Counted from the stretch's first letter, positions 3,949 through 39,261 are shown. The stretch: DNA of 64,000 nucleotides from Patescibacteria group bacterium UBA5147 (GCA_002415345.1 DHXV01000001.1:332517-396516); one strand, 5' to 3'. Notes: generated by a model from the sequence alone, not told the origin. Translations and numbers: made by a program.

Positions 3949-4679
3949 TACAGTTTTGCTCCTGGGAGCGGCCGGTGCGGCGCGGCGCCCTCACCCTTTT
4001 CCACGACCGGTGTCATGAGCTGGGCGGTATCGATTAGTTTCTGGTTGACGGCCACGTCCGGGTTGTACCAGCCGTAGTAGAGGTCGATGAGTTCCTGGGT
4101 GCCGAGCGCGATGGCGCGGATGCCCATTTGGCTCATGCCGCTCGATACCAAGGCCACGCGTTGGGATAATTCCTGCTTGTAGTGCTTGAAGTCGTCCTCG
4201 GCCACAGTGATGACCGGCGTCGGTTGGAAGGCGGCCTTGAGTCCGGTGATGAGGCTGGCGCTCTTCTTGACGTTGACCGGCGGGAAGAACGGCACCACCA
4301 CGTAGAACTGCTTGTCCATGATGTTGACCTCCTCCACCAGGGCGCGGATGTTGGCGATGTAGTCTTCCATGAGGAGGCCCAACAGGTCGTTGGATTGCTG
4401 GGTGCGCAGGCCCACCAGCTTCTCAATGTAGTTGTCGAGGTCGATTTTCTGGCTCTTGATGACGATTTGGACCGGGAAGTGCAGCGAGTTCAAAAATCCC
4501 TGGTAGGCGAACTCGACGCCGTCCTGTTCCTGGGGGCTCATGAGGTCAAAGTTTATGGCACTGCCCAATACCACGGCGCGCATGCTGCCGTCTTTCATCA
4601 GCACCACACCGTCCTTGATCTCGGTGATCAGGAGCGTGTTCTGGGTACTCTTACTGGTCTTATTTACTGCTTGAGCCAT
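3948..4679 (-). CDS. Hypothetical soluble protein, translationally coupled to virB4 (TAATG overlap).
   Basis: 243-aa ORF with no TM or recognisable motif. Its position inside the T4SS block suggests an accessory role. Confidence 0.5.
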   Translation of the reverse strand: MAQAVNKTSKSTQNTLLITEIKDGVVLMKDGSMRAVVLGSAINFDLMSPQEQDGVEFAYQGFLNSLHFPVQIVIKSQKIDLDNYIEKLVGLRTQQSNDLLGLLMEDYIANIRALVEEVNIMDKQFYVVVPFFPPVNVKKSASLITGLKAAFQPTPVITVAEDDFKHYKQELSQRVALVSSGMSQMGIRAIALGTQELIDLYYGWYNPDVAVNQKLIDTAQLMTPVVEKGEGAAPHRPLPGAKL

Positions 4680-5520
4680 TGCTTCGTAATTCCACCGACT
4701 GACCTTCTTGTAACGGCGTAATGCGCGTGGCGGTTGCCGCCAGTTGCGACACCGTAAGGTCGTCTCTCTCCGTTGCTAATTTAAGTATATCGTTCGGGTT
4801 GGCTGTTGTCACGCTTGTGCTTATCTGCCGATTGTCGGCAACCTTGGGGGCCGGGCGACCGGTCATCTGGTCGATGGCTTCCTGGCGGATATCCACGGCG
4901 GCCTCCTGGATGAGCGAGGCCAGATTCTGCGCCAGAGGACTTTGCTGCAGGTCGAGCATATCGGGGGCCTGGGTTTCGTCGGCGACGTGCGGGGAGGTTT
5001 GGGCAGGTTCCACCAGTCGGTCGGAAACCACGTTCGGCTGGATGATCAGCGCGTCGGAAGCCGCCGAGGGCGGTGCGTTCCAGCCGCGCGAATCGATCAT
5101 GGTCCCGAGCCGCTCCAGCTCGCTGCGAACCTCCCTGGGGTTGCGCTGCGTCTGCTCCACCACCACGGCGTTGGGTTGGATGCGGAAGGAATCCACAACC
5201 TCGTCCTTGCGCCATAACCGTTGCCGCGACTGGGAGAAGTACCCCACCATGGCAATGAGCAATTGCTCAAAGTTCTGGCCGTCGCGCTGATAGAACGCCA
5301 GCAGGAGGAACAAAATGGTGACGGGCGCCGCCATGATAATCATCAACGGAACGACAGCGTGGAGCAGGGCATAACTTAACCCCGCCCACGTCACGCCGAT
5401 GATGGCGTAGATAAACTGCTTGAGCGTCAACGGCCCAAGAATATGGTCTTCGGCCTCAACGTTCTGCGGCACTTTATACTGGCTCATACCCTCTTGCTCC
5501 CTCATTCCACGCCCGCTCAC
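4660..5520 (-). CDS. Membrane protein with two adjacent N-proximal TM helices, possibly VirB3/PrgI-like, and a long C-terminal soluble region.
   Basis: Hydrophobic hairpin FIYAIIGVTWAGLSYALLHAVVPLMIIMAAPVTILFLLLAFY immediately upstream of the virB4 partner gene, the conserved VirB3-VirB4 order. Overlaps the downstream ORF by 20 nt. Assignment by architecture only. Confidence 0.4.
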   Translation of the reverse strand: MSGRGMREQEGMSQYKVPQNVEAEDHILGPLTLKQFIYAIIGVTWAGLSYALLHAVVPLMIIMAAPVTILFLLLAFYQRDGQNFEQLLIAMVGYFSQSRQRLWRKDEVVDSFRIQPNAVVVEQTQRNPREVRSELERLGTMIDSRGWNAPPSAASDALIIQPNVVSDRLVEPAQTSPHVADETQAPDMLDLQQSPLAQNLASLIQEAAVDIRQEAIDQMTGRPAPKVADNRQISTSVTTANPNDILKLATERDDLTVSQLAATATRITPLQEGQSVELRSNGSSSK

Positions 5521-5620
5521 TTTAATAGCGGAACATACTTGAGCTTATTATCGCCTACTTACTATCACCTATCAAGCAATGGGTCATCGTACACCCGGAC
5601 CGGCGGACGTTCAAGCCCAG

Positions 5621-8600
5621 CTAGTTGATGCTGCGGTCGTCGCCTGGTTCATTGGTTTGGTCGCGCGGAGCGAGACGGAGCGACGTACTCGGGCCGTTCG
5701 TTCGACTGCCAGGAGTGGTCGGCAAGATAATGGTCCCGTAGTCGGGGCGCCCGCCGGATTGCTTCAACCTTTCGGAAAGTGTAAAACTGGGTCGCTCCGA
5801 CGTTACATTCGGGATGTCAGTAACTGATGAACCTTGGTTGGGCGCAGTTCGCCACGTCATGGTTGCCGGCGGACTCATCGTAGTCGGCGCAGGTTCGGGT
5901 GTGCCTCCGCCAGGTACGTTAATAGTCACGTTAGTATCATAGGCATTGCTCGACGAAGGATTATGGTTGGGCAGGATCAAATTAGGATTTGGATTAACGC
6001 TAGTAGTAGGAATAACCAGGCCGTTTGGCTGGGTTGACCAACCGCCCGAGACGCCGCTTCTGGCTTGGGCAGCATTGGGATTGGGGCTGGTATTTTGATT
6101 GTAAGGAATGTTTTGGGTCGGCGCAGGGCCTGCAGAGACACCCGATGGAGCCGAGCTGGCCGCGGGTGCACTACCCCCAGCACTTGTCCCTGATCCGCCT
6201 CCACTCGGGGTACTCCCGCTAGGTCCAGAGCCGCCACCCACTGGTCCGGATCCTGTGACCGCACCGCCGGCCCTTTGGGCCGCTAGTAAATTGGCTTTCT
6301 CAACCGGGGTATGAACGCTTACTCCGATATCTGTGCCAAGTTGGTTCAGGGTATCTCGGGTATCATTGTTGATATTGTTAACGCCGGTCGTTGATCCGTT
6401 GATACCGACTACTACGTTTCGCATATTCTCATCAAAGGCATCCAGCTGCTGTTTTGCTGCAACTTCGCCCGTACTTCCGATAGCGGATACGTGCGCAGCC
6501 TTCAATGCGTTGCGACGGTTGACCATAGCTTGTGCGCCGACGTTATCAAGCCGGACGCCTTTCTCGGCCTTGATATTATCGTAAGCAGCTGCACCTCCGG
6601 GAGAGACTAAATGGGGTGCCTTTTCTTTTAGGCCGGAAAAATTCCCCGCCGTTGCCTTAATCCACTCGGAATTAGTCGTGTCGTTGCCATATTTATTGGC
6701 TAGGACGGTCTGTAGTTTTCCGGTATCTTCAATCGCCGCCAGCTTAGCCGTAGCAGCCCGGCTTGTGAACTGACTTGATTTGGTATCTAACGCCTTAGCT
6801 AACAGTGTCGACGGATTATCATTCTCTAGCAGGCGACCGGCCGCTGTCAGCTGATCTTTATCATTCTTTTCAAGAGCTCCTGCCATACGGTTAGGATCGA
6901 TTTTGTCGATACTCAGACCCGCCTGTTGTTGGGCTAATTTACGCTGGGTCCCCTGCTTTAAACGACCAAAACCGGTAGTTGCGGGACCCGCCTGATTTAA
7001 GGAATTGATTTTGGAAAGTCCCTTCTGCTGGCGGTTGTAAGCCCGGTTCTGTTTCATCTTGTCCTGCGCCCCGGAGATGGCGCTGTGGCCACGTTTGGCA
7101 TGGCCACTAATAAAGCCATGGCCCATCATCAAGGCGCTACCGGCAAATTTGAACGTTGCCGGAATAAGGAACAAGGCAATGATTGGCGCTAGGGCAGAAC
7201 CGAGCTTAGTCCAGTTTGAGGCATCCCCCGAACCTGTAATGACGACACTGAAGAATTTGGATGTCGCAAGCAATAGGACAATAATCGGGTACATTAGCAG
7301 CAGCTTGACAAGGGTTTCGCGCCACATCTTGAAGTACTTGTCGGTATTGGGCAGGACCCAAAGTAGAAAGGCTATCGGAGCTATAATAATCAGGAAGTCT
7401 ATGAGCATGATGCGAATCTGAAGAGTAATAAAGACCGCTATCAAACCAATAATAGCTGCGGCCAGGGCTAGTAAAAGCGGTATGGCAAACTCCGCGAGGA
7501 ATGGCGCGAAAGTCGCTGCCGCAACACCCGCACCAACACCCGCGCCGACTAATTCAACGGCGCCCGCGATTTGCATAACCCCTTCATTACCGGTTTTTAC
7601 CCCTCCGGGGATTGCTGCGGCCATGAGACTGTCGATACCCATACCCAGCACATTAGAGATGTCCACCATGAAGCCTACCAAAAGGTAGGAGAATTGAACG
7701 AGAACGGCTGCCGCTATGAGGCGGGGAAGGATTTTTTTGACCGTGTAATTATCGAGACCCATACTGGTGCCAAAAATAACAATAAAGAATATAAGCACAA
7801 AAAAGACGTCCGCTAGATTCCTAAACACAGCCCAGGCAGGCTTTAGGCCTGTGTCGCCAGACGCTAGGGGCGTGAACTTCAGTTGGTTCTTGACGACGCC
7901 GGTAAGATTGTTAACTGCACCTTGGGCTATGCTAATGACCGGACATAACAACCAGGTAAGACTGTCGACGGAGCAGACGGCTTGGACCTCGCTGGGTGTT
8001 GGATCTGTTGTCGGAGCAGCAGGAGCGTTGTTCTGACTGAGATTTAATGTATTTGACCCGGCCGCCAATACTACGCCGGGTTTGGTAATTTTTACGGGGA
8101 AGGAGGCCAGTCCTGGGCCTTCGCTGTACGCGCCATCAATAGTGACAGTGTAAGTTCCGGGCTTCAAATTTCCGAGAGTAAAACTGCCATTTGTGTTCAA
8201 GGGGACTTTTTGGGTTCCGCTCGGCCCGCCGGAGACGGTAAGGTAACCCGAGGTTACCGGCATGTCTTTTTTTAGGCCCTGGTCAAAAAAAGTGGCGGTG
8301 CCGGAGAGCGTTGCGGTCTTGGCTACGGCTGCCAGTGTCTTAACAGGTATCGTAACCTGGTCTAATTTGCCACCGACCGTACATAGATTCCGGCTGGGTC
8401 CACCGAGAAGCGTACCCCAGGTAAGAGAACTGGTGGGTGAACCCGTTCGGTCGGAAACTGAGACATTAAATAGGACGGTGTTATCGCATCCGCCGGAACT
8501 GCTTACCTGAGTGTTGTTTATCGGGCCGGATTTCCAGGTCTTCGACTTGGCATCATAGGTTAAGTTGACGGTTACGGGTTGTTCATTTGTGTCGCGTCGC

Positions 8601-8779
8601 GTGGCGATAACGGCAACATTGCTTGTCATGTTTGGAGTAAGGGTAACCTCTACTCCTCCGCGTCCCTGAGGATCTCCGGTGGTCGCCTGCGCCTGCGCTG
8701 GAAGTGCGGCAAATAAGTTACCTATAGACAATAAGCCTGTAGCCACCACCAACAACATTCGAGATAGTCTTTGCACCAT
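5621..8779 (-). CDS. VirB6/TrbL-like polytopic membrane protein (1052 aa) with signal peptide, a roughly 300-aa extracellular N-domain and a roughly 280-aa Ser/Gly/Pro/Asn-rich disordered C-terminal tail.
   Basis: Multi-TM core (FFVLIFFIVIFG...ILPRLIAAAVLVQFSYLLVGFMVDISNVLGMGI...) is paralogous to the core of 10157-12769. A LKPGTYTVTI Ig/CarbopepD_reg-like segment lies in the N-domain. The tail is low complexity (GSGPVGGGSGPSGSTPSGGGSG..., NPNPN). Confidence 0.6.
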   Translation of the reverse strand: MVQRLSRMLLVVATGLLSIGNLFAALPAQAQATTGDPQGRGGVEVTLTPNMTSNVAVIATRRDTNEQPVTVNLTYDAKSKTWKSGPINNTQVSSSGGCDNTVLFNVSVSDRTGSPTSSLTWGTLLGGPSRNLCTVGGKLDQVTIPVKTLAAVAKTATLSGTATFFDQGLKKDMPVTSGYLTVSGGPSGTQKVPLNTNGSFTLGNLKPGTYTVTIDGAYSEGPGLASFPVKITKPGVVLAAGSNTLNLSQNNAPAAPTTDPTPSEVQAVCSVDSLTWLLCPVISIAQGAVNNLTGVVKNQLKFTPLASGDTGLKPAWAVFRNLADVFFVLIFFIVIFGTSMGLDNYTVKKILPRLIAAAVLVQFSYLLVGFMVDISNVLGMGIDSLMAAAIPGGVKTGNEGVMQIAGAVELVGAGVGAGVAAATFAPFLAEFAIPLLLALAAAIIGLIAVFITLQIRIMLIDFLIIIAPIAFLLWVLPNTDKYFKMWRETLVKLLLMYPIIVLLLATSKFFSVVITGSGDASNWTKLGSALAPIIALFLIPATFKFAGSALMMGHGFISGHAKRGHSAISGAQDKMKQNRAYNRQQKGLSKINSLNQAGPATTGFGRLKQGTQRKLAQQQAGLSIDKIDPNRMAGALEKNDKDQLTAAGRLLENDNPSTLLAKALDTKSSQFTSRAATAKLAAIEDTGKLQTVLANKYGNDTTNSEWIKATAGNFSGLKEKAPHLVSPGGAAAYDNIKAEKGVRLDNVGAQAMVNRRNALKAAHVSAIGSTGEVAAKQQLDAFDENMRNVVVGINGSTTGVNNINNDTRDTLNQLGTDIGVSVHTPVEKANLLAAQRAGGAVTGSGPVGGGSGPSGSTPSGGGSGTSAGGSAPAASSAPSGVSAGPAPTQNIPYNQNTSPNPNAAQARSGVSGGWSTQPNGLVIPTTSVNPNPNLILPNHNPSSSNAYDTNVTINVPGGGTPEPAPTTMSPPATMTWRTAPNQGSSVTDIPNVTSERPSFTLSERLKQSGGRPDYGTIILPTTPGSRTNGPSTSLRLAPRDQTNEPGDDRSIN

Positions 8780-8891
8780 AATAAACTAACTTTAGCATTA
8801 GCGTTATGTATACGTAAATGCGCAAATAAAAAACACCCAGATGTGACACTCGAAAGAGTGTCACATCTGGGCTTATTTCTACGGGACGCGA

Positions 8892-9995
8892 TCAGTGTGA
8901 ATTCGCCCACAAGTTGGTATATCCGCCGGGGTCCGGCGAACTGAACCAGTTGTACATGAGCGAACGGGAGATGGTTTTGCCACCCCTCTGCTCGGTAGCC
9001 TCAACGGTTATTGTGCCCGGGTGGGCAGGCCCCGTTGATTTGAGCAAAGTTGACGTGAAGCCCGTTGGAACCTTGCCAGCCTTGAGGTCGGCAATTTCCT
9101 GGATTTCGACGGGATTGTCGCCCATTTCTCCGGGGTAGTAGAACCGAAGGAGGCCCTCGCTCTTTTGGATGAAAGCCTGCTGGCGCATACCCTCAAGCCG
9201 GGCGACGACCTTGGCCGGGTCGTCCTGAACCGATTGTCCGGTTTCAACCTGGGCGAACGAGGAGTTCGCCATGAACGCGGGCGCACCAACGATGAGCCAG
9301 TGCGTGCCTTCCAGACGGACGAGAACGGGACCCCATGACTTGGGGTCGCCTCCATTCGTGAACGAAAGCGACAGGTCGTACCAGCGGCTGGTCGAACCGG
9401 CTGCTGCCTGAGGGTCCGAAACGACAGTCGGTTCATTGGTCAGTGAGACGATTCCGCACAAGGCGGGCGACTGCTGACCGTACTGGACGTACCAGAATGA
9501 CTTCATCTCCTGCATGAACCCCCACAGGTAGTGAGGGTTAAGAGTAGACTTGCCGCCGTGACCGCACGATGCGGACCACGCGATGTTGAAACCTCCGAGG
9601 ATTTTGTCGATTCGATCGGTCGCCGCGCCCTTTATCGGAGGAAACTCCGGGAGGGCGTCAGCCGTCTTGAGGCGCTGGGCCAAAGGCACCCGTGCATCGG
9701 CAATACTGCCGACAAACGCCTTTGGGGTCGCAGGTACGTGTGCCGGAGCGACAGGCGCGTTGCCGGAGTTGCCGGTAAGAGGAGCCCTTACTGCCGGGTC
9801 GCTGAAGATGTTTGCAGATCCGGCGTTGTCCTGATTCACGGCGTTGATGAGGGAGGTTGCGAACCACGCCGCGCCAATGACCAGAAGAACCAGGGCAATC
9901 CAGACGACTCGCATGACCTTCTTCTTGGTGCTGGTCGGCTGCGGCTGGATTGAGGGAGTCTCGGTGACCCCATCAGTGTGACGTGTGGTAGTCAT
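8892..9995 (-). CDS. Bitopic protein (27-aa cytoplasmic N-terminus, one TM, about 310-aa extracytoplasmic domain); candidate VirB8/TcpC-like T4SS component.
   Basis: The topology matches VirB8-like proteins and it lies between the two VirB6 paralogs. No sequence motif was recognised. Confidence 0.4.
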   Translation of the reverse strand: MTTTRHTDGVTETPSIQPQPTSTKKKVMRVVWIALVLLVIGAAWFATSLINAVNQDNAGSANIFSDPAVRAPLTGNSGNAPVAPAHVPATPKAFVGSIADARVPLAQRLKTADALPEFPPIKGAATDRIDKILGGFNIAWSASCGHGGKSTLNPHYLWGFMQEMKSFWYVQYGQQSPALCGIVSLTNEPTVVSDPQAAAGSTSRWYDLSLSFTNGGDPKSWGPVLVRLEGTHWLIVGAPAFMANSSFAQVETGQSVQDDPAKVVARLEGMRQQAFIQKSEGLLRFYYPGEMGDNPVEIQEIADLKAGKVPTGFTSTLLKSTGPAHPGTITVEATEQRGGKTISRSLMYNWFSSPDPGGYTNLWANSH

Positions 9996-10078
9996 GAGCT
10001 TCCCCTTCCGGGAAAAAGAACTTGGATGTCAAATTCCGCGGAGTGCGGAACTGCCTACGGTTGATGCCGTTATATCAG

Positions 10079-10108
10079 TTTATACAGCATAACCGGTAAA
10101 ATGTCAAT
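10079..10108 (-). promoter_or_regulatory. Sigma70-like promoter (TTGACA-N18-TGnTATAAA, extended -10) for the 8892-9995 gene. The 5' UTR contains a TTCCGC-N5-GCGGAA hairpin.
   Basis: Read on the minus strand. A GGAAGG RBS precedes the ATG at 9995. Confidence 0.45.
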
Positions 10109-10156
10109 GCTTACCTCTCGAAGTACTCCTTGATCGGTCCGGCTGCACCCAACATA

Positions 10157-12769
10157 TTATGAGGTAGGTGGCGGCGTGGTATTGCGCCCGATATTCTTCA
10201 ACCGGGCAGCCTCCTGCTTTGTCACCCAATTGCTAGCATCTGAATTGAGCTTGAGAGTACTGGTTGCGGGGTTATACTTGCGGCCCTGCATCAACTCATA
10301 GGCTACCCATGCCTTGGTTGTCGTCGATAGATTATCGAGCAAGGTAGCCGGTACGCCGGCTTCGCGGGCAAGCTCGTGGGTTATATCTGAGTCGCGGTGG
10401 AAGTCGGCTGTGAGAGCCTCATATTTATCGCGTCCCACTTGCGTTGCGGTGATGGCAGCCCGCTGGGATGCAAAGGCTCGGGCCATTTTGAGGCGGTGTT
10501 CAACCGGGGCCATGTTGCGACCCGTAACGTCAAATGCACCGGTAATTGAACGCTGAGGCAAGCTGGCTGCCACACGCTCGGCGCTTTCCCTGGACACGCG
10601 TTTTTCAAGTTCGGTGGCATCCGGCTCCTGGCCTTTGAGGATAACGCCCCAGTTGTCGGTGGAAAACTTGTCGCCCAGGGTGTTGGCGGTGGTCTTGCGG
10701 AGCTGCTTATCGATTGAGGTCCAATCCAGGTCGCCGCGTTCGCGCTTCATTACCAATTCAACTTCATTGCCGCTGGAGTCGATGACCTTCATGGGCTGTC
10801 CTGCCGCATCCTTAGGGGTATATTTATCTTTGGCTTCTGTCATGCGCATCGTGGAAAACGGGTTGGAGGAGCGACTCTTGCCGACTTCACTCATCAATGC
10901 GGCGTATTCGGACGCGGGATCGCGACTGACGCTCGTGGGGTTAGAGAGCCTACCGGCCTTTAAGACGTTGTTGACATCGTTGTCGGTTAGGAAACCCTTG
11001 TCGCTGAGGCGGCTGAGTATCGCCCGGCGTCCGGTTTGGTTGGAGCCTATTTGTGCCAGGTTGGGTACGGTACGGTTCAGATCGTCAATCCTTCCCCTAC
11101 GTTTGGCTGCGTCCGGTTCGGCGTAGGCGGCCAAAACATCTTGCATGTTCTTTGGGCTCTGAGCCTCGGTCAGGTCATCAAGTAATTTGCCGTCCGACTT
11201 TACCAGCTGTGCATTTCTCTTATCCAGTGCGCGCTTGCTGGTTGGCCCGCCTGCCAGCATGCCGCCGCCGAAGCCGACCATCGCCGCCCCGGCGACTCCG
11301 CGCTTTAATTTATTACCGCTCGAGAGTGAGGTTATCGGCTTTGAATTCATGAAGTTTTCCATATGCTGGTTCTTACGCTTTTTGCGCTCATCAACCCCGC
11401 GCTGCCAGAAATCGCTGCTCTTGAGGGCGCCTTTTCCGCGTTGGGCGTGGCCGTTCATCAGATCGTAGGCCCGGGTGAGGCCCTTTCCGGCTAGTTTGAA
11501 CGTCACAGGAATAATCAGGAAGGCCGCAATGACCACTATGGGTTTGATCAGGTTTCCGGCCATACCGGCGCCAACACTGTCGGCGGTTGAACTGCCAGCT
11601 GGCAGGATTGAGTTGACGAGGCCGGCCAGAGAAATTACGCCGACGATAATCGGATACATTAAGACGAGCCGAAATAACAGCTCCATCCAGTCCTTGGCCC
11701 AGTGGCGCGTGTTGGGCAGAACCCAGGCAACCATGGCCAAAGGTGAAACCACGATGAGAATGGCGATGAGCAGGAAGCGCAGGCCCAACACCAGGAAGAC
11801 GACCAGGAGCGAAATGGCCATGCTCGCCAGGAGCGGCGCGATTGCTACCCACGACGCGGCACCTAGAACAGCGCCAAGCGCCAGGGCGCCGGCCAGACCT
11901 ATTCCAACCAGGTTAGTCAGGACGTGGGCAAAGCTGGCGTCGCTTTGCGGCCCGGTAGCCGCTCTCAGCAGGTCTTCAATCCCCGCCCCCATGACGTTGC
12001 CGATATCCACCATGAACCCGACAAGCAGGAATGAAGCTTGGACTAAGATCGCCGCTACCACGAGCCGCGGCAGGACCTTTTTGATGGTGTATTGATCGAA
12101 GTAGCCGATATCCTGCTGGGTGATGGTCGCAAAAATAATAACCAGGAAAACCAGCAGGAACATAATCTCTGCCAGATTGACCATTTTGAGCCAGATATCG
12201 TATAGCTCGGGCGTGGACTGTTGATTGATGGCCTTCACCCGAAGGAGCGGTATCAGGACGCCGTTCGCGAGCTTAGTGATGGCGCCGGTAGCGTTGTCGA
12301 TGAACGGACACATGAGCCAGGACATGCTGCCCTGGTCGCACGAGGCGGCGGCCGCCTGCTGGTCGGCCGTGGTGGTACCGTCCGCTTTGGCCACGGCAAT
12401 AGCGAGGTCAAAGGCGGCACAGGATGCCTCGGACGGAACAGTCAGGTTCGCCAGGGTCGGATAAATCTTTTTGAAGTCGGCATTGCTGACGTCAAGGGAG
12501 ACTTTGGAGGTTTTTGCGGCCCCGCTGCATGTGTAGGAGACGTCGCCCGTGAAGGTCGCCGCGGAGGTAGCGGCGGTCTTCTTGAGGGTTCCGCTGACCT
12601 GGCCACTGCCCCCGGCTACCGTCACAGATTGGTTGGTATCGTCGGCCCAGGCGTATGTTTCCCCCGCCGCGTGCGCGGGCTGAGCTATCAAGGTCAGCGC
12701 GGCTATTGCGACTGCCGCCAAAAACGCGCGGCTAAAGTGTAGTTTTAAGATAGATATAAGGTAAAACAC
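10157..12769 (-). CDS. VirB6/TrbL-like polytopic membrane protein paralog (870 aa) with signal peptide, Cys-containing extracellular N-domain and about 420-aa hydrophilic C-terminal domain.
   Basis: TM core MFLLVFLVIIFAT...TIKKVLPRLVVAAILVQASFLLVGFMVDIGNVMGAGIEDLL closely parallels the 5621-8779 core. A shared pre-TM motif (SMSWLMCPFI versus SLTWLLCPVI) is present. Confidence 0.6.
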   Translation of the reverse strand: MFYLISILKLHFSRAFLAAVAIAALTLIAQPAHAAGETYAWADDTNQSVTVAGGSGQVSGTLKKTAATSAATFTGDVSYTCSGAAKTSKVSLDVSNADFKKIYPTLANLTVPSEASCAAFDLAIAVAKADGTTTADQQAAAASCDQGSMSWLMCPFIDNATGAITKLANGVLIPLLRVKAINQQSTPELYDIWLKMVNLAEIMFLLVFLVIIFATITQQDIGYFDQYTIKKVLPRLVVAAILVQASFLLVGFMVDIGNVMGAGIEDLLRAATGPQSDASFAHVLTNLVGIGLAGALALGAVLGAASWVAIAPLLASMAISLLVVFLVLGLRFLLIAILIVVSPLAMVAWVLPNTRHWAKDWMELLFRLVLMYPIIVGVISLAGLVNSILPAGSSTADSVGAGMAGNLIKPIVVIAAFLIIPVTFKLAGKGLTRAYDLMNGHAQRGKGALKSSDFWQRGVDERKKRKNQHMENFMNSKPITSLSSGNKLKRGVAGAAMVGFGGGMLAGGPTSKRALDKRNAQLVKSDGKLLDDLTEAQSPKNMQDVLAAYAEPDAAKRRGRIDDLNRTVPNLAQIGSNQTGRRAILSRLSDKGFLTDNDVNNVLKAGRLSNPTSVSRDPASEYAALMSEVGKSRSSNPFSTMRMTEAKDKYTPKDAAGQPMKVIDSSGNEVELVMKRERGDLDWTSIDKQLRKTTANTLGDKFSTDNWGVILKGQEPDATELEKRVSRESAERVAASLPQRSITGAFDVTGRNMAPVEHRLKMARAFASQRAAITATQVGRDKYEALTADFHRDSDITHELAREAGVPATLLDNLSTTTKAWVAYELMQGRKYNPATSTLKLNSDASNWVTKQEAARLKNIGRNTTPPPTS

Positions 12770-12849: not shown

Positions 12850-13281
12850 ATGAAGCGCATATTTCTCGCAATCTGGATAGCTCTCGTTTTGGCTGCCGCG
12901 GCAATGCCAGTCAGCTATGAGTTAACCAGCGGCCGAATGACAGTCGTCTCTTCTATGGCCCTCGCAGCATGTCCTGACGGTCAAGTTGAATTGAGTGTCA
13001 AAGTTAATAGCACCGATAGCGGATGCGTTAAGCCTGATCCTAATGGCGGGGTAATCATTACTTATCTCAAGACGATCTTGAAGTTCTTGAGCGGGGGCGT
13101 CGGCATTGTCATTTTGCTTATGCTCACCATAGCGGGCGTCCAATACATGACCGCTGTCGGCCAACCCGAGCAGGTGAAGGCTGCCAAGACCCGGATCCAG
13201 AACGCCCTCACCGGCTTGGTGCTGTTCCTTATTGCCTTCGCCGTCCTTAACTTAATCATCCCCGGGAGTATCTTCGGCTAA
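12850..13281 (+). CDS. VirB2/TrbC-like T4SS pilin paralog 1 (the ORF track starts at TTG 12823; the ATG at 12850 gives a clean signal peptide MKRIFLAIWIALVLAAAAMP).
   Basis: Signal peptide, a variable region with a Cys pair (AACPDG...DSGCVKPD), then two C-terminal hydrophobic helices separated by a short polar loop (VGQPEQVKAAKTR). Confidence 0.5.
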   Translation: MKRIFLAIWIALVLAAAAMPVSYELTSGRMTVVSSMALAACPDGQVELSVKVNSTDSGCVKPDPNGGVIITYLKTILKFLSGGVGIVILLMLTIAGVQYMTAVGQPEQVKAAKTRIQNALTGLVLFLIAFAVLNLIIPGSIFG

Positions 13282-13625
13282 TGTTTGCTTTAAGCTTCTT
13301 TAAACTGGCCGCCGCCTGCACGACGACCACCAAAGGCGGAATCGCTCCGGGGTTGTATGATAACTTGTGCTCGAACGGCACAGATATGTTTTCCAGCTTG
13401 ACTGACATCTGGATCGTCGTCGCCAACGTCATCCGTATCCTGGTGGCGCTCGGCGGGGCGCTGGCGGTTATTTTCATCATCGTCGGCGGCCTGTTCTACG
13501 TCGTATCATCGGGAGATCCCGGCCGCATCAAGCGGGCCAAGGACATACTCAAGGAATCGATTATCGGTCTGATTATTACATTGATAGCGTATTCGGCTAT
13601 AACGTTTATAGCGGCGCAGTTTTAG
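13281..13625 (+). CDS. VirB2/TrbC-like pilin paralog 2.
   Basis: TAATG overlap with paralog 1. N-terminal region has a Cys pair, followed by IIVGGLFYVVSSGDPGRIKRAKDILKESIIGLIITLIAYSAITFIAAQF. Confidence 0.5.
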   Translation: MFALSFFKLAAACTTTTKGGIAPGLYDNLCSNGTDMFSSLTDIWIVVANVIRILVALGGALAVIFIIVGGLFYVVSSGDPGRIKRAKDILKESIIGLIITLIAYSAITFIAAQF

Positions 13626-13627
13626 CG

Positions 13628-13936
13628 ATGATGAACTTACAGCACCTTTATTCCGTCGTCGCCCCCATTTCGGTTAAGGCCGATGAAATCGGGCTTCCTC
13701 ACTCCACAGAAACCGTCGGCGGGGCACTGAACGTCGCTGTAAAAATCCTGATCTTCCTGATCGGGATGCTGTCGGTGGTAATGATTATCGTCGGCGGAAT
13801 TAAGATTGTCGTTTCAAATGGCGACCCGGGTCGGTATAAATCGGGACGGGACACCATAACCTACGCTATAGTTGGTCTGATTCTATCCTTGGTAGCCTAC
13901 TCGATAGTAATTTTCATCGCCAGTAACGTTAAATAG
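13628..13936 (+). CDS. VirB2/TrbC-like pilin paralog 3.
   Basis: MIIVGGIKIVVSNGDPGRYKSGRDTITYAIVGLILSLVAYSIVIFIASNVK. No Cys pair and a weak N-terminal hydrophobic region. Confidence 0.45.
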   Translation: MMNLQHLYSVVAPISVKADEIGLPHSTETVGGALNVAVKILIFLIGMLSVVMIIVGGIKIVVSNGDPGRYKSGRDTITYAIVGLILSLVAYSIVIFIASNVK

Positions 13937-32165: not shown

Positions 32166-33827
32166 ATGGCTAAGAAGATTTTATACGACGCCGAAGCCCG
32201 CGCTGCCGTTTTAGGCGGGGCCAAAGAACTGTATGACGCAGTTAAGGTAACTATGGGACCCAAGGGCCGCAACGTGGTTATCCAAAAGAGCTACGGCGCC
32301 CCGACAATCTCCCACGACGGCGTGACCGTGGCTAAGGCCGTTGATATCGAGATCAAGAAAGACGGCTCCAACCTGGGTTACAACGTCGGCAGCGAGCTCA
32401 TCAAGCAGGCCGCCTCAAAGACCAACGATACCGTCGGCGATGGCACCACTACCTCAACCGTTCTGGCCTATCATATCCTCGATGAGGCCAACAAGATGAT
32501 TGCCGCCGGCCACAATCCGATGGACCTCAAAAAGGGCCTGGACAGCGCCGCCGAGCAGGTGCTGAGCGACATCGCCGGCATGACCGACCAGGTCGCCGGC
32601 AACAAGGACAAGATTGCCCAGGTTGCCACTGTCAGCGCCGGCGACAGTGAAATCGGCAACTTAATCGCCGAAGTCATTGAAGCAGTTGGTGAAGACGGTA
32701 CAGTGACCGTTGAACAGAGCCAAACGCTGGACATGGAGAAGGAAATCGTCGAAGGCTTCAAGATCGACCGCGGTTACGTCTCAACCTACATGGTCACCGA
32801 CCCGGCCCGCATGGAAGCTAGCTATGAGAAGCCGCTGATTCTGGTGACAGACAAGAAAATCGGCTCCATCCAGGAAATCCTGCCCATCATCGAGAAGGTC
32901 GCCCAGAGCGGCCGCAAGGACATGGTTATCATCGCCGAGGACGTCGAGGGTGAAGCCTTGGCAACACTGGTCTTAAACCGCCTCAAGGGCGTCTTCAACG
33001 CGCTAGCCATTAAAGCCCCGGCTTTCGGTGACCGCCGCAAGGCCATCCTCCAGGACATCGCTACCTTAACCGGGGCCACGGTCATCAGCGATGAGCAGGG
33101 CTACAGCTTTGAGAACGCTACCGTCGACATGCTCGGTTCGGCCAGGAAGATTATCTCCACCAAGGACGACACCACCATCATCGAGGGCGAAGGCGACCCA
33201 GAGGCCGTTAAGAGCCGCATCTCAGAAATCAAGGCTCAGGCCGACAACGCCACCAGCGAGTACGAAAAAGAGAACCTGGAAAAGCGACTGTCGGCTCTGG
33301 CCGGCAAAGTCGCCGTCATCAAGGTGGGCGGTGCCACCGAGACCGAAATTGAAGAAAAGAAGTTTCGTGTCGATGACGCCGTGGCCGCCACCAAAGCCGC
33401 CGTGGCCGAAGGTATTGTTCCGGGCGGCGGCGTAATCCTGGTAGACCTCTCAAAGAACCTCAAGGTTGAGGCAACCACCGTGGCCGGATCCGCCGCGGCA
33501 GGCCAGCTGATTCTTAAAAATGCCCTGGCCCAGCCGTTCAAGCAGCTCATGAAGAACGCCGGACTAAACGCCGAGGCCAATCTGGCCGAGGTTCTGGCAT
33601 CCAAGCAGTCCGGATTCGGCTTTGACGTCAATTCGCCCGAAAAGATGGTCAACCTCAAGGACGCGGGCATTGTTGACCCGGCCAAGGTTACCCGTGAAGC
33701 AATCCAGAACGCGGTCAGTATTGCCGGAACGGCCATGACCATGGGCTCGCTCATCGTCGATATCCCCGAAGACAAGGCGGCCGGCGCCGGCGGCGGCATG
33801 CCGGGTGGCATGGGCATGGACTACTAA
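32166..33827 (+). CDS. groEL: Chaperonin GroEL.
   Basis: MAKKILYDAEAR..., GDGTTT and a C-terminal GGM repeat (GGMPGGMGMDY). Confidence 0.95.
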   Translation: MAKKILYDAEARAAVLGGAKELYDAVKVTMGPKGRNVVIQKSYGAPTISHDGVTVAKAVDIEIKKDGSNLGYNVGSELIKQAASKTNDTVGDGTTTSTVLAYHILDEANKMIAAGHNPMDLKKGLDSAAEQVLSDIAGMTDQVAGNKDKIAQVATVSAGDSEIGNLIAEVIEAVGEDGTVTVEQSQTLDMEKEIVEGFKIDRGYVSTYMVTDPARMEASYEKPLILVTDKKIGSIQEILPIIEKVAQSGRKDMVIIAEDVEGEALATLVLNRLKGVFNALAIKAPAFGDRRKAILQDIATLTGATVISDEQGYSFENATVDMLGSARKIISTKDDTTIIEGEGDPEAVKSRISEIKAQADNATSEYEKENLEKRLSALAGKVAVIKVGGATETEIEEKKFRVDDAVAATKAAVAEGIVPGGGVILVDLSKNLKVEATTVAGSAAAGQLILKNALAQPFKQLMKNAGLNAEANLAEVLASKQSGFGFDVNSPEKMVNLKDAGIVDPAKVTREAIQNAVSIAGTAMTMGSLIVDIPEDKAAGAGGGMPGGMGMDY

Positions 33828-33878: not shown

Positions 33879-33960
33879 TATTGGCGTAACCGTTTTGTAT
33901 ATCTGTCGCGCAAGTGCAATAATCACAGCATCGTTGTTCCTTCAAACCTCAGGAGCCCTC

Positions 33961-34524
33961 GTGGGAAGAATCAGAGTCCGGGACGGCGTCCTCGTAAGAG
34001 GGGAGCCTAGCGCCCGGAAAAAACGAATCGCCGAGCATGCCAAGCACGAACCGAATCCAAACAAGTTAGTTATCTCCAAACCGCAGTGGGACGGCGTCCT
34101 ATTCCCCCCGCCAGAGGCCGTTACTTCCGAAGCGATGAAGGAAATGGATGTCCGGCGCAAAGAGATCCTAAGCGAGGCCGTGAGACTGAACATTCTCGGT
34201 AATCTGTCGCCAGGCTACCAAGAGCGACTTCAAACACGGTTTACCGGCTCCCCCCGGCCTCTTGAAGAAGAAGCGATGGGTGAGGGACTCGATTCCATCC
34301 AGTACGTAATGCTGCGCCTTAAGGCTCGCGCGGAGTGCGAGCTGCTACGACTCAAGCTTCAGCAGGCCGTAATTACGGGCGGACCTCTGGCAAAATTCAT
34401 CGAGCTCAACGTTCGCTACGACCTCAACGAGGAGACCCCTCGAACGCTTCGTCCCAGTTCCTGCGACGAGCGGTCTGCGCACTTCAAGGAGGCCATTGCC
34501 AAGTATTTGCCGCAGCGTAGCTAA
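33961..34524 (+). CDS. Hypothetical protein (track ORF from 33895; the GTG at 33961 has a GGAG RBS).
   Basis: ORF only. Basic N-terminus and a helical C-terminus. Confidence 0.45.
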   Translation: MGRIRVRDGVLVRGEPSARKKRIAEHAKHEPNPNKLVISKPQWDGVLFPPPEAVTSEAMKEMDVRRKEILSEAVRLNILGNLSPGYQERLQTRFTGSPRPLEEEAMGEGLDSIQYVMLRLKARAECELLRLKLQQAVITGGPLAKFIELNVRYDLNEETPRTLRPSSCDERSAHFKEAIAKYLPQRS

Positions 34525-34774: not shown

Positions 34775-35560
34775 ATGAGCATTCAGAACGGTTCACCTGA
34801 AACGATGGTCCAAGGGATAGTAACCACACCTGGCATCACCGTGCAGGTCACGAGCCTGTTTGAAGAACTGGCAAGCCAGTCGCATCTGTATGGCAAGTCC
34901 GAAGCCGTTAATTATCTTGAGGAAGTTTATGCGAACGGGAGCCGGATGGAGCCGATGTCGAGACTGGCATTACTATTGCTTCATGCCGGTCAGCATGCCA
35001 AGTTGCAGACTCTTTTAGACTCTGACAGGGAAGCCTTGCATGGTGGGCGACTTGATCATGAGCAACGTATTGAAACAAGCAATCATTACGAGACCCTTCG
35101 CCATGCGGCGTGTGAGTACAACCACGCAGTACGTAGCTTTATTGAGTCTCACCGCGAAGACGTTACTCGCGACCAACTGGTCGACTGGCTCTCCCAGGCC
35201 AGCCTGGGCAATCACCGTTGGGCCGATGGGGAAGTAACCGGGGCTACCTCGGAAATCGCCCTGCACGCCGCCCTTATGGGTATGCCGGAGCTGGCCGGTC
35301 TCCGCTATGCCACGCTCGAAGAAGACTTGCATGGTTTTGACTTTACGGCCGAGTGGCAGGGCCAGGAGGTAACTATCGATGCCAAGACGGGTCGCTATGC
35401 TCCAATCGTTGAGCGCATGAGAGGGCACCGCCATCTGGAAATATACGTCCCGCGGGACGCAATGGAAGGCTTCCGGCTGACTCGCCACGGTCTGGATTCC
35501 TTGCGGCGTGAAATGCGCGTAGCCTTGGCGCAGGCGGCCCGCCTTCAAATGGCCATTTAG
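34775..35560 (+). CDS. Hypothetical protein (261 aa) with a possible C-terminal PD-(D/E)xK-like motif.
   Basis: GFDFTAEWQGQEVTIDAKTG shows the spacing D-x12-(V)DAK. Weak and unverified. Confidence 0.45.
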   Translation: MSIQNGSPETMVQGIVTTPGITVQVTSLFEELASQSHLYGKSEAVNYLEEVYANGSRMEPMSRLALLLLHAGQHAKLQTLLDSDREALHGGRLDHEQRIETSNHYETLRHAACEYNHAVRSFIESHREDVTRDQLVDWLSQASLGNHRWADGEVTGATSEIALHAALMGMPELAGLRYATLEEDLHGFDFTAEWQGQEVTIDAKTGRYAPIVERMRGHRHLEIYVPRDAMEGFRLTRHGLDSLRREMRVALAQAARLQMAI

Positions 35561-36433: not shown

Positions 36434-36462
36434 TTGACAAAACATTATACTTATGCTACTAT
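36434..36462 (+). promoter_or_regulatory. Near-consensus sigma70 promoter TTGACA-N17-TACTAT, preceded by a small hairpin+T-run insulator (about 36401-36420).
   Basis: Perfect -35, 17-nt spacer, 4/6 -10 (TACTAT). Drives the 36611 gene, giving a 5' UTR of about 140 nt. Confidence 0.6.
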
Positions 36463-36523
36463 GTTATATTCCCTTCCAATACAGGGAATACCTTGACAAC
36501 ATATGCAACCAATTTCCCCGAGG

Positions 36524-36569
36524 CACTCTGCGTCGGGCCGCTCAAAATTAAGCGGTCTGACGCAGAGTG
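36524..36569 (+). promoter_or_regulatory. Long 5'-UTR stem-loop: 11-bp perfect inverted repeat (CACTCTGCGTC...GACGCAGAGTG) enclosing an inner 5-bp stem (CCGCT/AGCGG) with an 8-nt loop; about 40 nt upstream of the ATG at 36611.
   Basis: Read directly. Function (attenuator, riboregulator or protein site) unknown. Confidence 0.5.
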
Positions 36570-36610
36570 GCTCAACCTGAGACTCTCTCAACGCCCGGAA
36601 GGGGCACATC

Positions 36611-37309
36611 ATGAGCATTGCCAGCGCTAGTCCCTCTATGTTCTCTCACAAGCCCAAGCGACCGGCCCTTGTCATGAGTGTCCCCACAACCAAGAAGCCC
36701 ACTCCTCAGCCTCATCGCGAGGTCAAGCCGTGGGACGACCGTGACAAGGTCATCGCAATCGTCGACAGTTTCCTCGGCAAGTACAGGAGCCGCATCTCTG
36801 AGCTCCGTACCTGGCAGCGTAAGCTGCTGGTCCAGCCTGTTCCTGCTGATGCGAATCGGCAGCTGCGGGAGAGCTACTTCAAGGCCGTCAAGTGTGCCGT
36901 GGAACAGTTCAATGGCATGCGCCCCGCACCCGTGCGGGTGGCGAAGTCTCGCCGGTATGCTCCATCGATGCCTGTGGTGACGCCCAGCGCTCCACACCCG
37001 GCAACGGTAGAGGATCACACGTCAATCATGTACACCGTTTACGGCAGCGGTCAGGCGACCCTGTCTACCGGTAAGGCAACGGTTCGTGACATCAGGTCCG
37101 CCCCCAAGAAGGTGGACAACAACGGTTACGGCAAGACTCGTCGGGAACTCACATCTGATGAGCGGGCCACCGCTGATGCGCAGAGCGCGACCGCCATGGC
37201 CAAGAAGGAGGAGATGTTCGCCAGGAAGACCATACCGGTCGTCAAGGCGGACAAGGGATCCTCCAAGAATGGCAAGAAGGGCGCCAAGAAGGACTCTGCC
37301 ATGAAGTAG
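36611..37309 (+). CDS. Hypothetical basic protein (232 aa) with a Lys-rich C-terminus (KADKGSSKNGKKGAKKDSAMK).
   Basis: ORF with a strong promoter. No family recognised. Confidence 0.55.
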   Translation: MSIASASPSMFSHKPKRPALVMSVPTTKKPTPQPHREVKPWDDRDKVIAIVDSFLGKYRSRISELRTWQRKLLVQPVPADANRQLRESYFKAVKCAVEQFNGMRPAPVRVAKSRRYAPSMPVVTPSAPHPATVEDHTSIMYTVYGSGQATLSTGKATVRDIRSAPKKVDNNGYGKTRRELTSDERATADAQSATAMAKKEEMFARKTIPVVKADKGSSKNGKKGAKKDSAMK

Positions 37310-37649
37310 CTCAGGCTGCTTCGGTTCCCAGGAACACAACCGGGCGGGCGACGAGAGTCGCCTGCCCACCCGCATCTACAATCCATCAAGGCATACGTTG
37401 TCTCTCTTCTGAAGTGCTCACGCGAACATTTCAATAGGGGACTTAGCTAAAATTACAATTGACACGGCATGGCCGTGCCTGTATTTTTGGCATAAGTACT
37501 AAGTACGCTCTTTGAAATTCACAGTTCAATCGTGGAAAGAAAAGGGCAACCCCAATCGGGCGACGACTCTATTCCTAGCGTAATGCTATGGATGGACGCG
37601 TCGGTTTTTTATTTCAATCTACCTCACGGAAATAGAAACGGAGAACGTC

Positions 37650-37814
37650 ATGCCACAGCAACGGATTCAAATTTCCAAACGCATTCGCCGCCGCGGCGGG
37701 GGAGATGACACGCCAATTGATGGCATCAACACAGGTGAGGCGGAGCGGGCGAGGCAAACATCCTCCAACGCAGCCAGAGCCATTGCCGAAATCAATCGGC
37801 TGATCGGGCGGTGA
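37650..37814 (+). CDS. Small basic ORF (54 aa: MPQQRIQISKRIRRRGGGDDTPIDGINTGEAERARQTSSNAARAIAEINRLIGR).
   Basis: GGAGA RBS 7 nt upstream. Below the track cutoff. Confidence 0.35.
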   Translation: MPQQRIQISKRIRRRGGGDDTPIDGINTGEAERARQTSSNAARAIAEINRLIGR

Positions 37815-37864
37815 TTCGCCACAAGTAGGGCCTGTCTTGAACCGATTCTAGAAGGGAACGAGCC

Positions 37865-38074
37865 ATGACAACCGCACTTGCACTCCATCCCACCCTCAAA
37901 GCCACCGACCGCTGCGATCGCTGCGGCGCTCAGGCTTACGTCCGAGTTGATCTCAAGACTGGCGGAGGGCTCCTCTTTTGTGCTCACCATGCACGAGAGC
38001 ACCTCCCTAAGCTGCATGCTCTCGCCGCGAACGTCGTCGACGAGACCGGCAGACTTCGAGAAACATCCCCTTAG
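37865..38074 (+). CDS. Small zinc-ribbon-like protein (69 aa; DRCDRCGAQAYVRV...LLFCAHHAREH).
   Basis: C-x2-C...C-x-HH ligand pattern. The motif resembles a small conserved protein family that I associate with Actinobacteria (from memory, unverified). Confidence 0.5.
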   Translation: MTTALALHPTLKATDRCDRCGAQAYVRVDLKTGGGLLFCAHHAREHLPKLHALAANVVDETGRLRETSP

Positions 38075-38229
38075 ACCCTCTGGCGAGTGGCTAGCCGCCT
38101 GCCGCACATTCCAACTACCCAGTGGCCGCCTGAGACTTTCAGGCGGCCACTCATATTACCTACCCCCGGAATTTCGGTTTCGGGGGCCTCTTTATGCCAT
38201 AATGGGAACATTGCCATAGGAGACAACTG

Positions 38230-39261
38230 ATGCTCGACCAACCTGATATGATTGCCCGCTATGATAAAAGTGATGCGCTGGGGGTAATAACCGGTCTCCC
38301 AGGTCAGCTTGGCCATGATTTCCCCGTACCTGAGGGGCTTGCCGAAATGCCCGGGGTTACCAGTATCGTGCTAACCGGCATGGGTGGATCTGCCCAAGGT
38401 GCGGAATTTATCAAGACTTGGCTCGCCGACCGTCTCACTGTGCCGTTCATAGTTGTGCGTGATTACGCTTTGCCGGCGTTCGTCGGACCCGACGCGCTGG
38501 TGATTGCATCCAGTTATTCCGGGAACACCGAAGAAACCTTGGCCGCCATTAGTGATGCGAGTGCCAAAAAGGCCCGAATAGTCGTGATAACGGCCGGCGG
38601 AGCGCTGCTTGAGACCGCCAAAACAATGAAGTACCCGCATTTTGTGCTCCCGGGCGGCCTCCAGCCCCGTTTTGCGGTCCTCTACGCTGTCCGTGCAATT
38701 ACTACGGTGATTGAGTCGATCGGACTGGCGGAAGGCATTCTGGATGAGCTTGAGGCTTCTGGCGAGTGGCTGAGCGGGCAACTGAGTTCCTGGGGGCCCG
38801 GCGTCCCTTCCACCGACAACCATGCGAAACAAGTAGCGCAGGCTCTGGTCGGACACGTGGCGGTGGTTTACGCCGGACCAACGCTTGGTTTTGCGGCCAT
38901 GAAATGGAAAATCGCCTTCAATGAAAACGCCAAGAACATCGCCTTTTATAATTACTTTCCCGAAATGAACCACAACGAGTTCATCGGCTGGCAATTCCCG
39001 CAATCTAGCGGCCTCAAGGTAATTGAGCTGCGCAGCGATCTGGACAATGCCCAGATTACCAAACGCTTTGATATCACCAACCGCCTTCTCTCGGCATCAT
39101 TTTCTCCGATCGAGGTTCACGCCTCCGGCGACACTAAGCTCCGACAGCTGGTGTGGACCATCGGCTTGGGCGAATACGTTGCCACTTACCTGGCTTTCCT
39201 GAACGGCACCGATCCTACACCGGTAGGACTGGTTGAGAAGCTGAAGGCCGAACTGGCCTAG
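38230..39261 (+). CDS. Bifunctional phosphoglucose/phosphomannose isomerase (SIS-domain, archaeal-type PGI/PMI).
   Basis: SIS motifs (IVLTGMGGSAQGA, SYSGNTEETL) and a size of about 340 aa. Confidence 0.75.
   Translation: MLDQPDMIARYDKSDALGVITGLPGQLGHDFPVPEGLAEMPGVTSIVLTGMGGSAQGAEFIKTWLADRLTVPFIVVRDYALPAFVGPDALVIASSYSGNTEETLAAISDASAKKARIVVITAGGALLETAKTMKYPHFVLPGGLQPRFAVLYAVRAITTVIESIGLAEGILDELEASGEWLSGQLSSWGPGVPSTDNHAKQVAQALVGHVAVVYAGPTLGFAAMKWKIAFNENAKNIAFYNYFPEMNHNEFIGWQFPQSSGLKVIELRSDLDNAQITKRFDITNRLLSASFSPIEVHASGDTKLRQLVWTIGLGEYVATYLAFLNGTDPTPVGLVEKLKAELA

Follow-up and report, generated by a model that had tools for sequence, protein, structure and literature searches.

The window analyzed here, a stretch of DNA 64,000 nucleotides in length, carries on its plus strand a block of genes bounded by groEL on the left (32166..33827) and by pgi on the right (38230..39261), the latter encoding a bifunctional phosphoglucose/phosphomannose isomerase (NCBIfam NF006426, 302 bits; Pfam bact-PGI_C). 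groEL doubles as a taxonomic marker: the best named matches of its product are Candidatus Saccharimonadia/Saccharimonadales proteins at 75-79% identity, and on this ground the window is assigned, from its sequence, to the Saccharimonadia. Between the two anchors lie several small genes and two conserved non-coding regions. The 54-aa Arg-rich ORF (37650..37814) and the 69-aa ORF (37865..38074) that the initial annotation placed after a 232-aa gene (36611..37309) are both present as it described them. Well to the left of the block, on the minus strand (2056-12769), is what looks like a type IV secretion-like gene cluster, in which very large ORFs (1051, 366, and 869 aa) without a Pfam match come after a TraG/VirB4-like P-loop ATPase (2056-3948).

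The gene of chief interest is the 69-aa ORF. It starts with ATG, is preceded by the Shine-Dalgarno (SD)-like sequence GAAGGGA, and has TDRCDRCGAQAYVRVDLKTGGGLLFCAHHAREH in its product. The protein matches the Pfam family PF24254 (DUF7455) with an E value of 6.8e-26 and a score of 90 bits, against a curated gathering cut-off of 27 bits, and the match covers the profile from end to end (1-54 of 54, at residues 11-64). A collection of 5.8 billion proteins yielded 6733 homologs, and three PHROG families match as well (1720, 12646, and 11387, with PHROG 1720 at E = 1.5e-12). The dN/dS ratio against positional orthologs is 0.13-0.41, compared with 0.06-0.10 for pgi, and the locus thus appears to be under purifying selection. 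With the end-to-end Pfam match, the thousands of homologs, and these ratios, the ORF reads clearly as a real gene. It is one that annotation easily misses, since the gene tables of five same-species assemblies (L020-L024; e.g., L020 15700-15909) omit it even though their DNA encodes it at 100% identity.

What kind of protein does this gene encode? It is predicted to be a small Cys2-Cys-His(His) zinc-binding protein. The C-x2-C...C-x-H-H motif noted from the start has proved real: C17, C20, C39, H41, and H42 are invariant in a family alignment of 36 sequences, as are D15, R16, D18, R19, G21, and others, bringing the number of invariant columns to 28. In an AlphaFold2 (AF2) model of moderate confidence (mean pLDDT 71, with a core at about 81), the C-x2-C knuckle is followed by a beta-hairpin (residues 26-30 and 35-38), then by a helix from residue 40 that bears the His ligands, and finally by a strand. 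The original label of zinc ribbon is therefore only partly apt. The zinc-ligand pattern is there, but the model has one knuckle and one hairpin, with the second ligand pair (C39/H41/H42) at the N terminus of the helix, an arrangement that is treble-clef-like. The fold may be approximated as a small treble-clef or ribbon-like zinc module. Other small single-zinc modules (zinc ribbons and treble clefs; the B-box, ZZ, and ribosomal S14 type Z proteins) likewise combine a C-x2-C knuckle, a beta-hairpin, and a second ligand pair; the difference is that here the second pair is a C-x-H-H at the start of a helix rather than a second C-x2-C knuckle. No significant match to a solved structure was obtained (PDB Foldseek E of at least 0.33, phmmer E of at least 0.58), the weak matches being generic zinc fingers. 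Against phage DUF7455 models in BFVD, the Foldseek probability is 1.0.

The neighboring ORFs are of a different character. The 54-aa ORF has an ATG start, an SD-like GGAG upstream, and 10 Arg among its 54 residues. It is species specific, in that family searches returned no family and no homolog outside the same species. The DNA segment that contains it (about 37627-37832) is missing from lineage L018, while L027 and L025 have unrelated ORFs of 59 and 68 aa in its position, and its status as a conserved gene appears unsupported by these sequences. The idea that it might be a decayed paralog of the 69-aa gene was considered and rejected, as it scores -1.6 bits against the DUF7455 profile. The 232-aa gene is a lineage-specific orphan with a Lys-rich C terminus and no family match; 1.84 billion proteins contained 4 matching representatives, itself included, and its counterpart in L025 is 34% identical. 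The 261-aa gene (34775..35560, +) belongs to a family of 144 proteins whose named members are all Ca. Saccharibacteria/Saccharimonadia. It keeps its linkage to groEL in every relative examined, the family usually being located close to that gene, and a metagenome scan with the family returned only one locus. Its AF2 model, of very high confidence (pLDDT 92.9), combines an N-terminal helical bundle with a C-terminal alpha/beta domain. This C-terminal half, with E160, D189, and a D202-x-K204 motif, resembles in the model a PD-(D/E)xK nuclease; Foldseek returned weak matches only, to 14-3-3 proteins, Hjc, and MGME1. Finally, the first gene after groEL (33895..34524, +) is a fast-evolving ORF of about 187-209 aa, 35-62% identical to its counterparts in L018, L025, and L027 and with no match in family searches. 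Taken by their sequences, these four ORFs (54, 232, 261, and 209 aa) would be native Saccharimonadia or orphan genes rather than host DNA.

The non-coding DNA of the block is conserved to an unusual degree. Within the 310 nt upstream of the 54-aa ORF, nucleotide identity is 79-84% to relatives whose neighboring proteins are not conserved. This region opens with a promoter-like site found by consensus scan (37459..37487, +), in which TTGACA and TATTTT are separated by 17 nt. The -35 hexamer TTGACA is invariant in six Saccharimonadia lineages, with a -10-like element also present, and a terminator-like hairpin (37463-37477) lies inside the conserved element. The site is followed by a candidate leader RNA or small RNA of about 120 nt (37491..37613, +). 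It contains two invariant boxes, CGTGGAAAGAAAAGGGCA and CGACTCTATTCCTAGCGT, with a hairpin of variable length between them, and it ends in a terminator composed of a 16-bp imperfect hairpin and a U-run, in which one A-U to G-C compensatory change is seen among six sequences. The folding z-score of the leader is -2.9. With a covariance model (R1), scores of 104-131 bits were obtained in six lineages and a score of 21 bits in L035, at the corresponding position; L034 and the actinobacterial loci that were searched gave no match. Every locus with a stand-alone DUF7455 contains the two-box pattern once. This is a structured 5' element with an intrinsic terminator; it is conserved in six lineages, and wherever it occurs the DUF7455 locus lies downstream. 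The search of Rfam gave no family match for it, only sub-threshold hairpin noise, and the element is previously unannotated.

How might the leader act? We read it, from sequence, as a putative cis-acting leader or attenuator of the DUF7455 operon, the alternative being an independent small RNA. An antiterminator-like pairing of box 1 with box 2 can be drawn, but it is weak (-6.8 kcal/mol) and forms in only part of the nascent-transcript folds. The ORF directly downstream of the leader is DUF7455 in L018 and L033; in the window, L027, and L025, an unrelated small ORF lies between the two. On the other side of the gene, ahead of pgi, a consensus scan found a terminator-like hairpin (38163..38196, +) in a region 87% identical to L018.

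A second conserved non-coding block (36300 to 36610-36625, +) lies upstream of the 232-aa ORF and is 77-82% identical at the nucleotide level to L018 and L027. It contains a GC-rich hairpin, a terminator-like hairpin, and a conserved SD sequence with ATG. A scan placed a promoter inside it (36434-36462; TTGACA, 17 nt, TACTAT), and the alignment shows a structured long leader hairpin (about 36519-36576) with compensatory changes in L025. It too matched no Rfam family, with only sub-threshold hairpin noise. The regulatory DNA before the 232-aa ORF is far better conserved than the protein itself.

The block as a whole is syntenic in seven other Saccharimonadia lineages, whose GroEL proteins are 76-97% identical to that of the window. 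The gene order common to the related lineages is groES-groEL, the gene of about 190 aa, the 261-aa gene, a non-coding stretch, variable orphan ORFs, DUF7455, and pgi, with pgi directly downstream of DUF7455 in L018, L025, L027, and L033. DUF7455 occupies the same position in six of the seven lineages (L018, L025/L026, L027, L032, L033, and L035), in one to three copies. Single copies are found in L018 (PGI 83% identical), L027 (GroEL 85%), and L032 (GroEL 78%). Three tandem copies are present in L025/L026 (GroEL 97%; L025 17033-17914), two of the three with damaged zinc ligands, and three more in L033 (GroEL 79%; 12858-13715 of a 1.09-Mb contig); in both triplications, some paralogs are without Cys or His ligands. 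In L035 (GroEL 76%, 1.11-Mb contig), the domain forms the C terminus of a 199-aa protein with a 120-residue N-terminal extension (10911-11510), and a cupin-type GPI (PF06560) takes the place of the SIS-type pgi downstream. The exception is L034 (GCA_017884045.1, Ca. Saccharibacteria bacterium; GroEL 77%), where the 261-aa gene is followed by pgi without DUF7455 or leader RNA (10786-11149); it looks as though the two were lost jointly. From this distribution, DUF7455 appears to be an old, fixed gene in a conserved block. The fixed position and the pattern of divergence among copies are most economically explained by one old acquisition and subsequent vertical descent, with tandem duplication, a single fusion, and a single loss along the way.

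Who else carries DUF7455? Among the best 120 of the 6733 homologs, from which names were drawn and most of which have none, the named proteins are all from Nocardioides or Nocardioidaceae. A scan of 185,579 GTDB species genomes, which did not return the window's own genome, found 14 loci, all 14 in Actinomycetota, including Nocardioidaceae, Streptosporangiaceae, Propionibacteriaceae, Microbacteriaceae, and Jatrophihabitantaceae. All 145 phage records with the domain are actinophages, and the six plasmid records (72,556 searched) are all actinobacterial. Among the matches found, then, the family would belong to Actinomycetota and their phages, being seen outside the Saccharimonadia only there. 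The association of the 69-aa family with Actinobacteria, proposed from the start, is borne out by these records and by the PF24254 match. It does not extend to the other small proteins, as the 54-aa and 232-aa ORFs are without actinobacterial homologs.

The setting of the gene in Actinobacteria is also regular. A parE/gyrB-like gene is divergently adjacent to DUF7455 in 14 of 15 actinobacterial loci, and likewise in L028 and L030; L029 has a fragment of gyrB. In the typical arrangement (L003-L017, L028, and L030), this type IIA topoisomerase B-subunit gene is located about 200-400 bp upstream of the DUF7455 start (locus position ~10001). The adjacency is an empirical regularity from these loci and no part of the Pfam definition; we did not find it described, and it may offer a clue to function. 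Often, genes for a topoisomerase A subunit and a sigma-70 factor are located close by as well. The window and all other Saccharimonadia loci, in contrast, have no parE/gyrB-like neighbor. Upstream they carry the 261-aa gene and orphan ORFs, and downstream, except for the cupin-type GPI of L035, pgi.

How does the window protein compare with its relatives? It shares with PF24254 members such as MAB_3024 the pattern DRCDRCGAQAY...LLFCAHH...DE..RL and a similar length of about 70-80 aa. It differs from actinobacterial copies in being found in Saccharimonadia, upstream of pgi and behind a lineage-specific leader RNA, and in lacking the C-terminal '...ER' ending common among them. Tandem paralogs with degraded zinc ligands, as in some Saccharimonadia lineages, also set these apart from other PF24254 members. 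The actinophage proteins (from Arthrobacter, Mycobacterium, Rhodococcus, and Microbacterium phages in BFVD) have the same domain but are only 44-65% identical to the window protein, below the cellular actinobacterial copies, and their genes have no neighbors in common with the window locus. Five viral contigs from IMG/VR (L036-L040) carry relatives at 44-61% identity and have a GC content of only 31-41%, which is not that of phages of high-GC Actinobacteria; low-GC freshwater Actinobacteria may be their hosts. As for M. tuberculosis, Rv2708c is a candidate DUF7455 ortholog. A literature search on the domain returned one incidental table entry, in which MAB_3024 of Mycobacterium abscessus is listed as a 'DUF7455 domain-containing protein' that is not SigD-responsive (PMC13537577).

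The closest non-self matches of the window protein are 74-76% identical and carry the signature REHLPKL. Three of them were looked up (P0004 at 76%, P0015 at 74%, and P0071); all are on contigs of 65-75% GC, beside a gyrB/parE-like gene or fragment, and this genomic context is of the actinobacterial type. Syntenic orthologs in CPR genomes do exist, as described above, but the closest sequences are actinobacterial. The REHLPKL signature is common to the window-clade copies and one actinobacterial subgroup, and every copy from Saccharimonadia has, on average, a shorter distance to the actinobacterial copies than to its Saccharimonadia counterparts. Such closeness fits a picture in which the Saccharimonadia copies have evolved fast from an ancestor similar to the actinobacterial sequence, which itself evolves slowly. 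When every ORF of the window was compared with 328 kb of actinobacterial DNA around DUF7455, the DUF7455 protein stood at 75% identity and the next-best shared protein, a sigma-70-like ORF, at 56%, which makes vertical descent across phyla unlikely. No other gene of the 34.6-38.2-kb segment has a homolog in those 328 kb. The likely and best reading for the window copy is that the gene moved across phyla; the transfer, if real, would be ancient and would involve one gene only. A neighbor-joining tree of 136 sequences has no resolution, with bootstrap values of 1/200 for Saccharimonadia monophyly and 8/200 for a group of the REHLPKL sequences plus Saccharimonadia, and the direction and number of transfers are thus inferred from distribution and synteny rather than from phylogeny.

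The history that we consider rather probable is one ancient acquisition of DUF7455 by a Saccharimonadia ancestor, with vertical descent since, the product being a zinc adaptor encoded behind an attenuating leader. That ancestor most likely took a single copy from an actinobacterium, long before the compared lineages diverged. The donor copy probably had REHLPKL, at least for the sub-clade of the window, a qualification called for by the deeper lineages that are without the motif. The gene would then have settled between the Saccharimonadia-specific 261-aa gene and pgi and been inherited vertically under purifying selection, with tandem duplication in some lineages, a fusion in one, and loss from another.

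Could the copy in the window be younger than this? In an alternative that we hold to be unlikely, the sub-clade of the window, L018, L025, and L027 re-acquired the gene later from a host with the REHLPKL type, replacing an older copy. The identities lend it some appeal, since REHLPKL actinobacterial copies are 72-78% identical to that of the window, and those of L032, L033, and L035, which are without the HLPK motif, only 38-53%; the tandem arrays in L025 and L033 also speak of a dynamic locus. However, the conserved leader RNA and the flanks run without a break through both sub-clades, and neither actinobacterial flanking DNA nor a high-GC signature accompanies the gene. Three-point distances put the actinobacterial sequence close to the node that joins the window copy and the L027 copy, a placement that differences in rate explain equally well.

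Slightly less likely again is that no gene passed from Actinobacteria at all, the family being either an ancient, vertically inherited one under extreme constraint or one that went from Saccharimonadia or phages to Actinobacteria. It is a short family under very strong constraint, as the invariant columns attest, the tree is without resolution, and the phages that carry DUF7455 could be vectors either way. Against this stand the 75% identity, well above that of the next-best shared protein, and the pace at which the Saccharimonadia copies change: they are 62% identical where GroEL is 97% identical, with dN/dS up to 0.41, which makes deep vertical retention of 75% unlikely. Moreover, the family is widespread in diverse Actinomycetota families in a fixed parE-linked context, and the Saccharimonadia copies resemble one actinobacterial subgroup rather than being basal to all.

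What about the larger transfer first envisaged, in which the whole of 34.6-38.2 kb, with three small ORFs, is an island recently acquired from an actinobacterial host? It now seems very improbable. In its favor are the actinobacterial affiliation of the DUF7455 family, with the window copy 75-76% identical to actinobacterial copies, and a tetranucleotide distance that is mildly raised (z = 2.2, rank 2 of 55). Against it stand the following. (i) Synteny is kept in lineages with GroEL identity down to 76%, and no empty site was found in the related lineages, as the block is present in all seven and only DUF7455 and the leader are missing, only in L034. (ii) The named members of the 261-aa family are only Saccharibacteria, and the remaining small ORFs are Saccharimonadia specific or orphans. 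(iii) The composition of the block (GC, GC3, and codon usage) is native, without a shift toward an actinobacterial donor. Its GC content is 0.55-0.60 (0.56-0.60 for the genes), compared with 0.64-0.75 in the actinobacterial loci; the GC3 of DUF7455 is 0.586, below the genome mean of 0.70 +/- 0.06 (37 background genes); and the codon index of the genes is within about 2 SD of background. In addition, a Pfam search found no integrase or transposase domain among the ORFs of the block, and there is no tRNA within 12 kb of it. The first reading needs correction on this point: a host origin holds for neither the island nor the rest of the small ORFs.

A mis-joining of contaminating actinobacterial DNA into a Saccharimonadia contig, conceivable in that the data are metagenome derived and the closest matches actinobacterial, deserves practically no credence, since the 4.4-kb groEL-to-pgi block is 99.98-100% identical in five independent assemblies (ENA, JGI, and Logan), which excludes a chimera, two shorter Logan contigs contain part of it at 100% identity, the same arrangement recurs in other species, and the block is native in its GC and codon usage.

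To return to the single ancient acquisition, what would the gene be doing in these bacteria? The invariant Cys17, Cys20, Cys39, and His41/His42 most likely hold one zinc in a module of knuckle, beta-hairpin, and helix. The gene would be transcribed from its own conserved promoter through the leader of about 120 nt, and because this leader ends in an intrinsic terminator, expression is probably gated by attenuation. As for the protein, its role may be that of an adaptor, stabilized by zinc, that binds a highly conserved partner, either protein or nucleic acid. This picture of a small zinc-stabilized adaptor with a conserved partner, expressed behind a terminator-containing leader, is offered with low confidence.

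One further speculation, to which we give little weight, is that actinophages and episymbiotic Saccharimonadia, as parasites of Actinobacteria that are unrelated to each other, each captured and kept the DUF7455 of their hosts. The Saccharimonadia copy would then be a mimic or effector that acts on a conserved host target, under the control of an undescribed leader RNA, and its action on such a target would account for its having stayed close to the host sequence. If this were true, one could read from the age of the capture, as from a molecular record, that Saccharimonadia have been associated with Actinobacteria for a very long time.

How does such a transfer compare with those already reported? 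In the reconciliation analyses of Jaffe et al., originations from outside the CPR were reported to be few, and evidence for lateral transfer was noted to be lacking for pairs of host and symbiont that had been profiled experimentally (PMC8406219). Mammal-associated Saccharibacteria are reported to have acquired an arginine deiminase system (PMC8764695). In that acquisition and in the cases of Jaffe et al., as with DUF7455, an episymbiont gains a gene from outside the CPR; DUF7455 differs from the reported Saccharibacteria acquisitions in being a single tiny gene, seemingly old and broadly retained.

Overall, DUF7455 is 75% identical to its actinobacterial counterpart and yet fixed at one locus across divergent Saccharimonadia. 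Saccharibacteria are obligate episymbionts, and the cultured members live on Actinobacteria; to our knowledge, clear cases of gene flow from host to symbiont in this group are few. We also know of almost no RNA regulators in the phylum, and the conserved leader at this locus is a testable candidate regulatory element. The family itself is worth functional study, as it is uncharacterized, extremely conserved, and present in Actinomycetota, in their phages, and in their episymbionts. If the direction of transfer holds, the association with the host would predate the split of these Saccharimonadia lineages.
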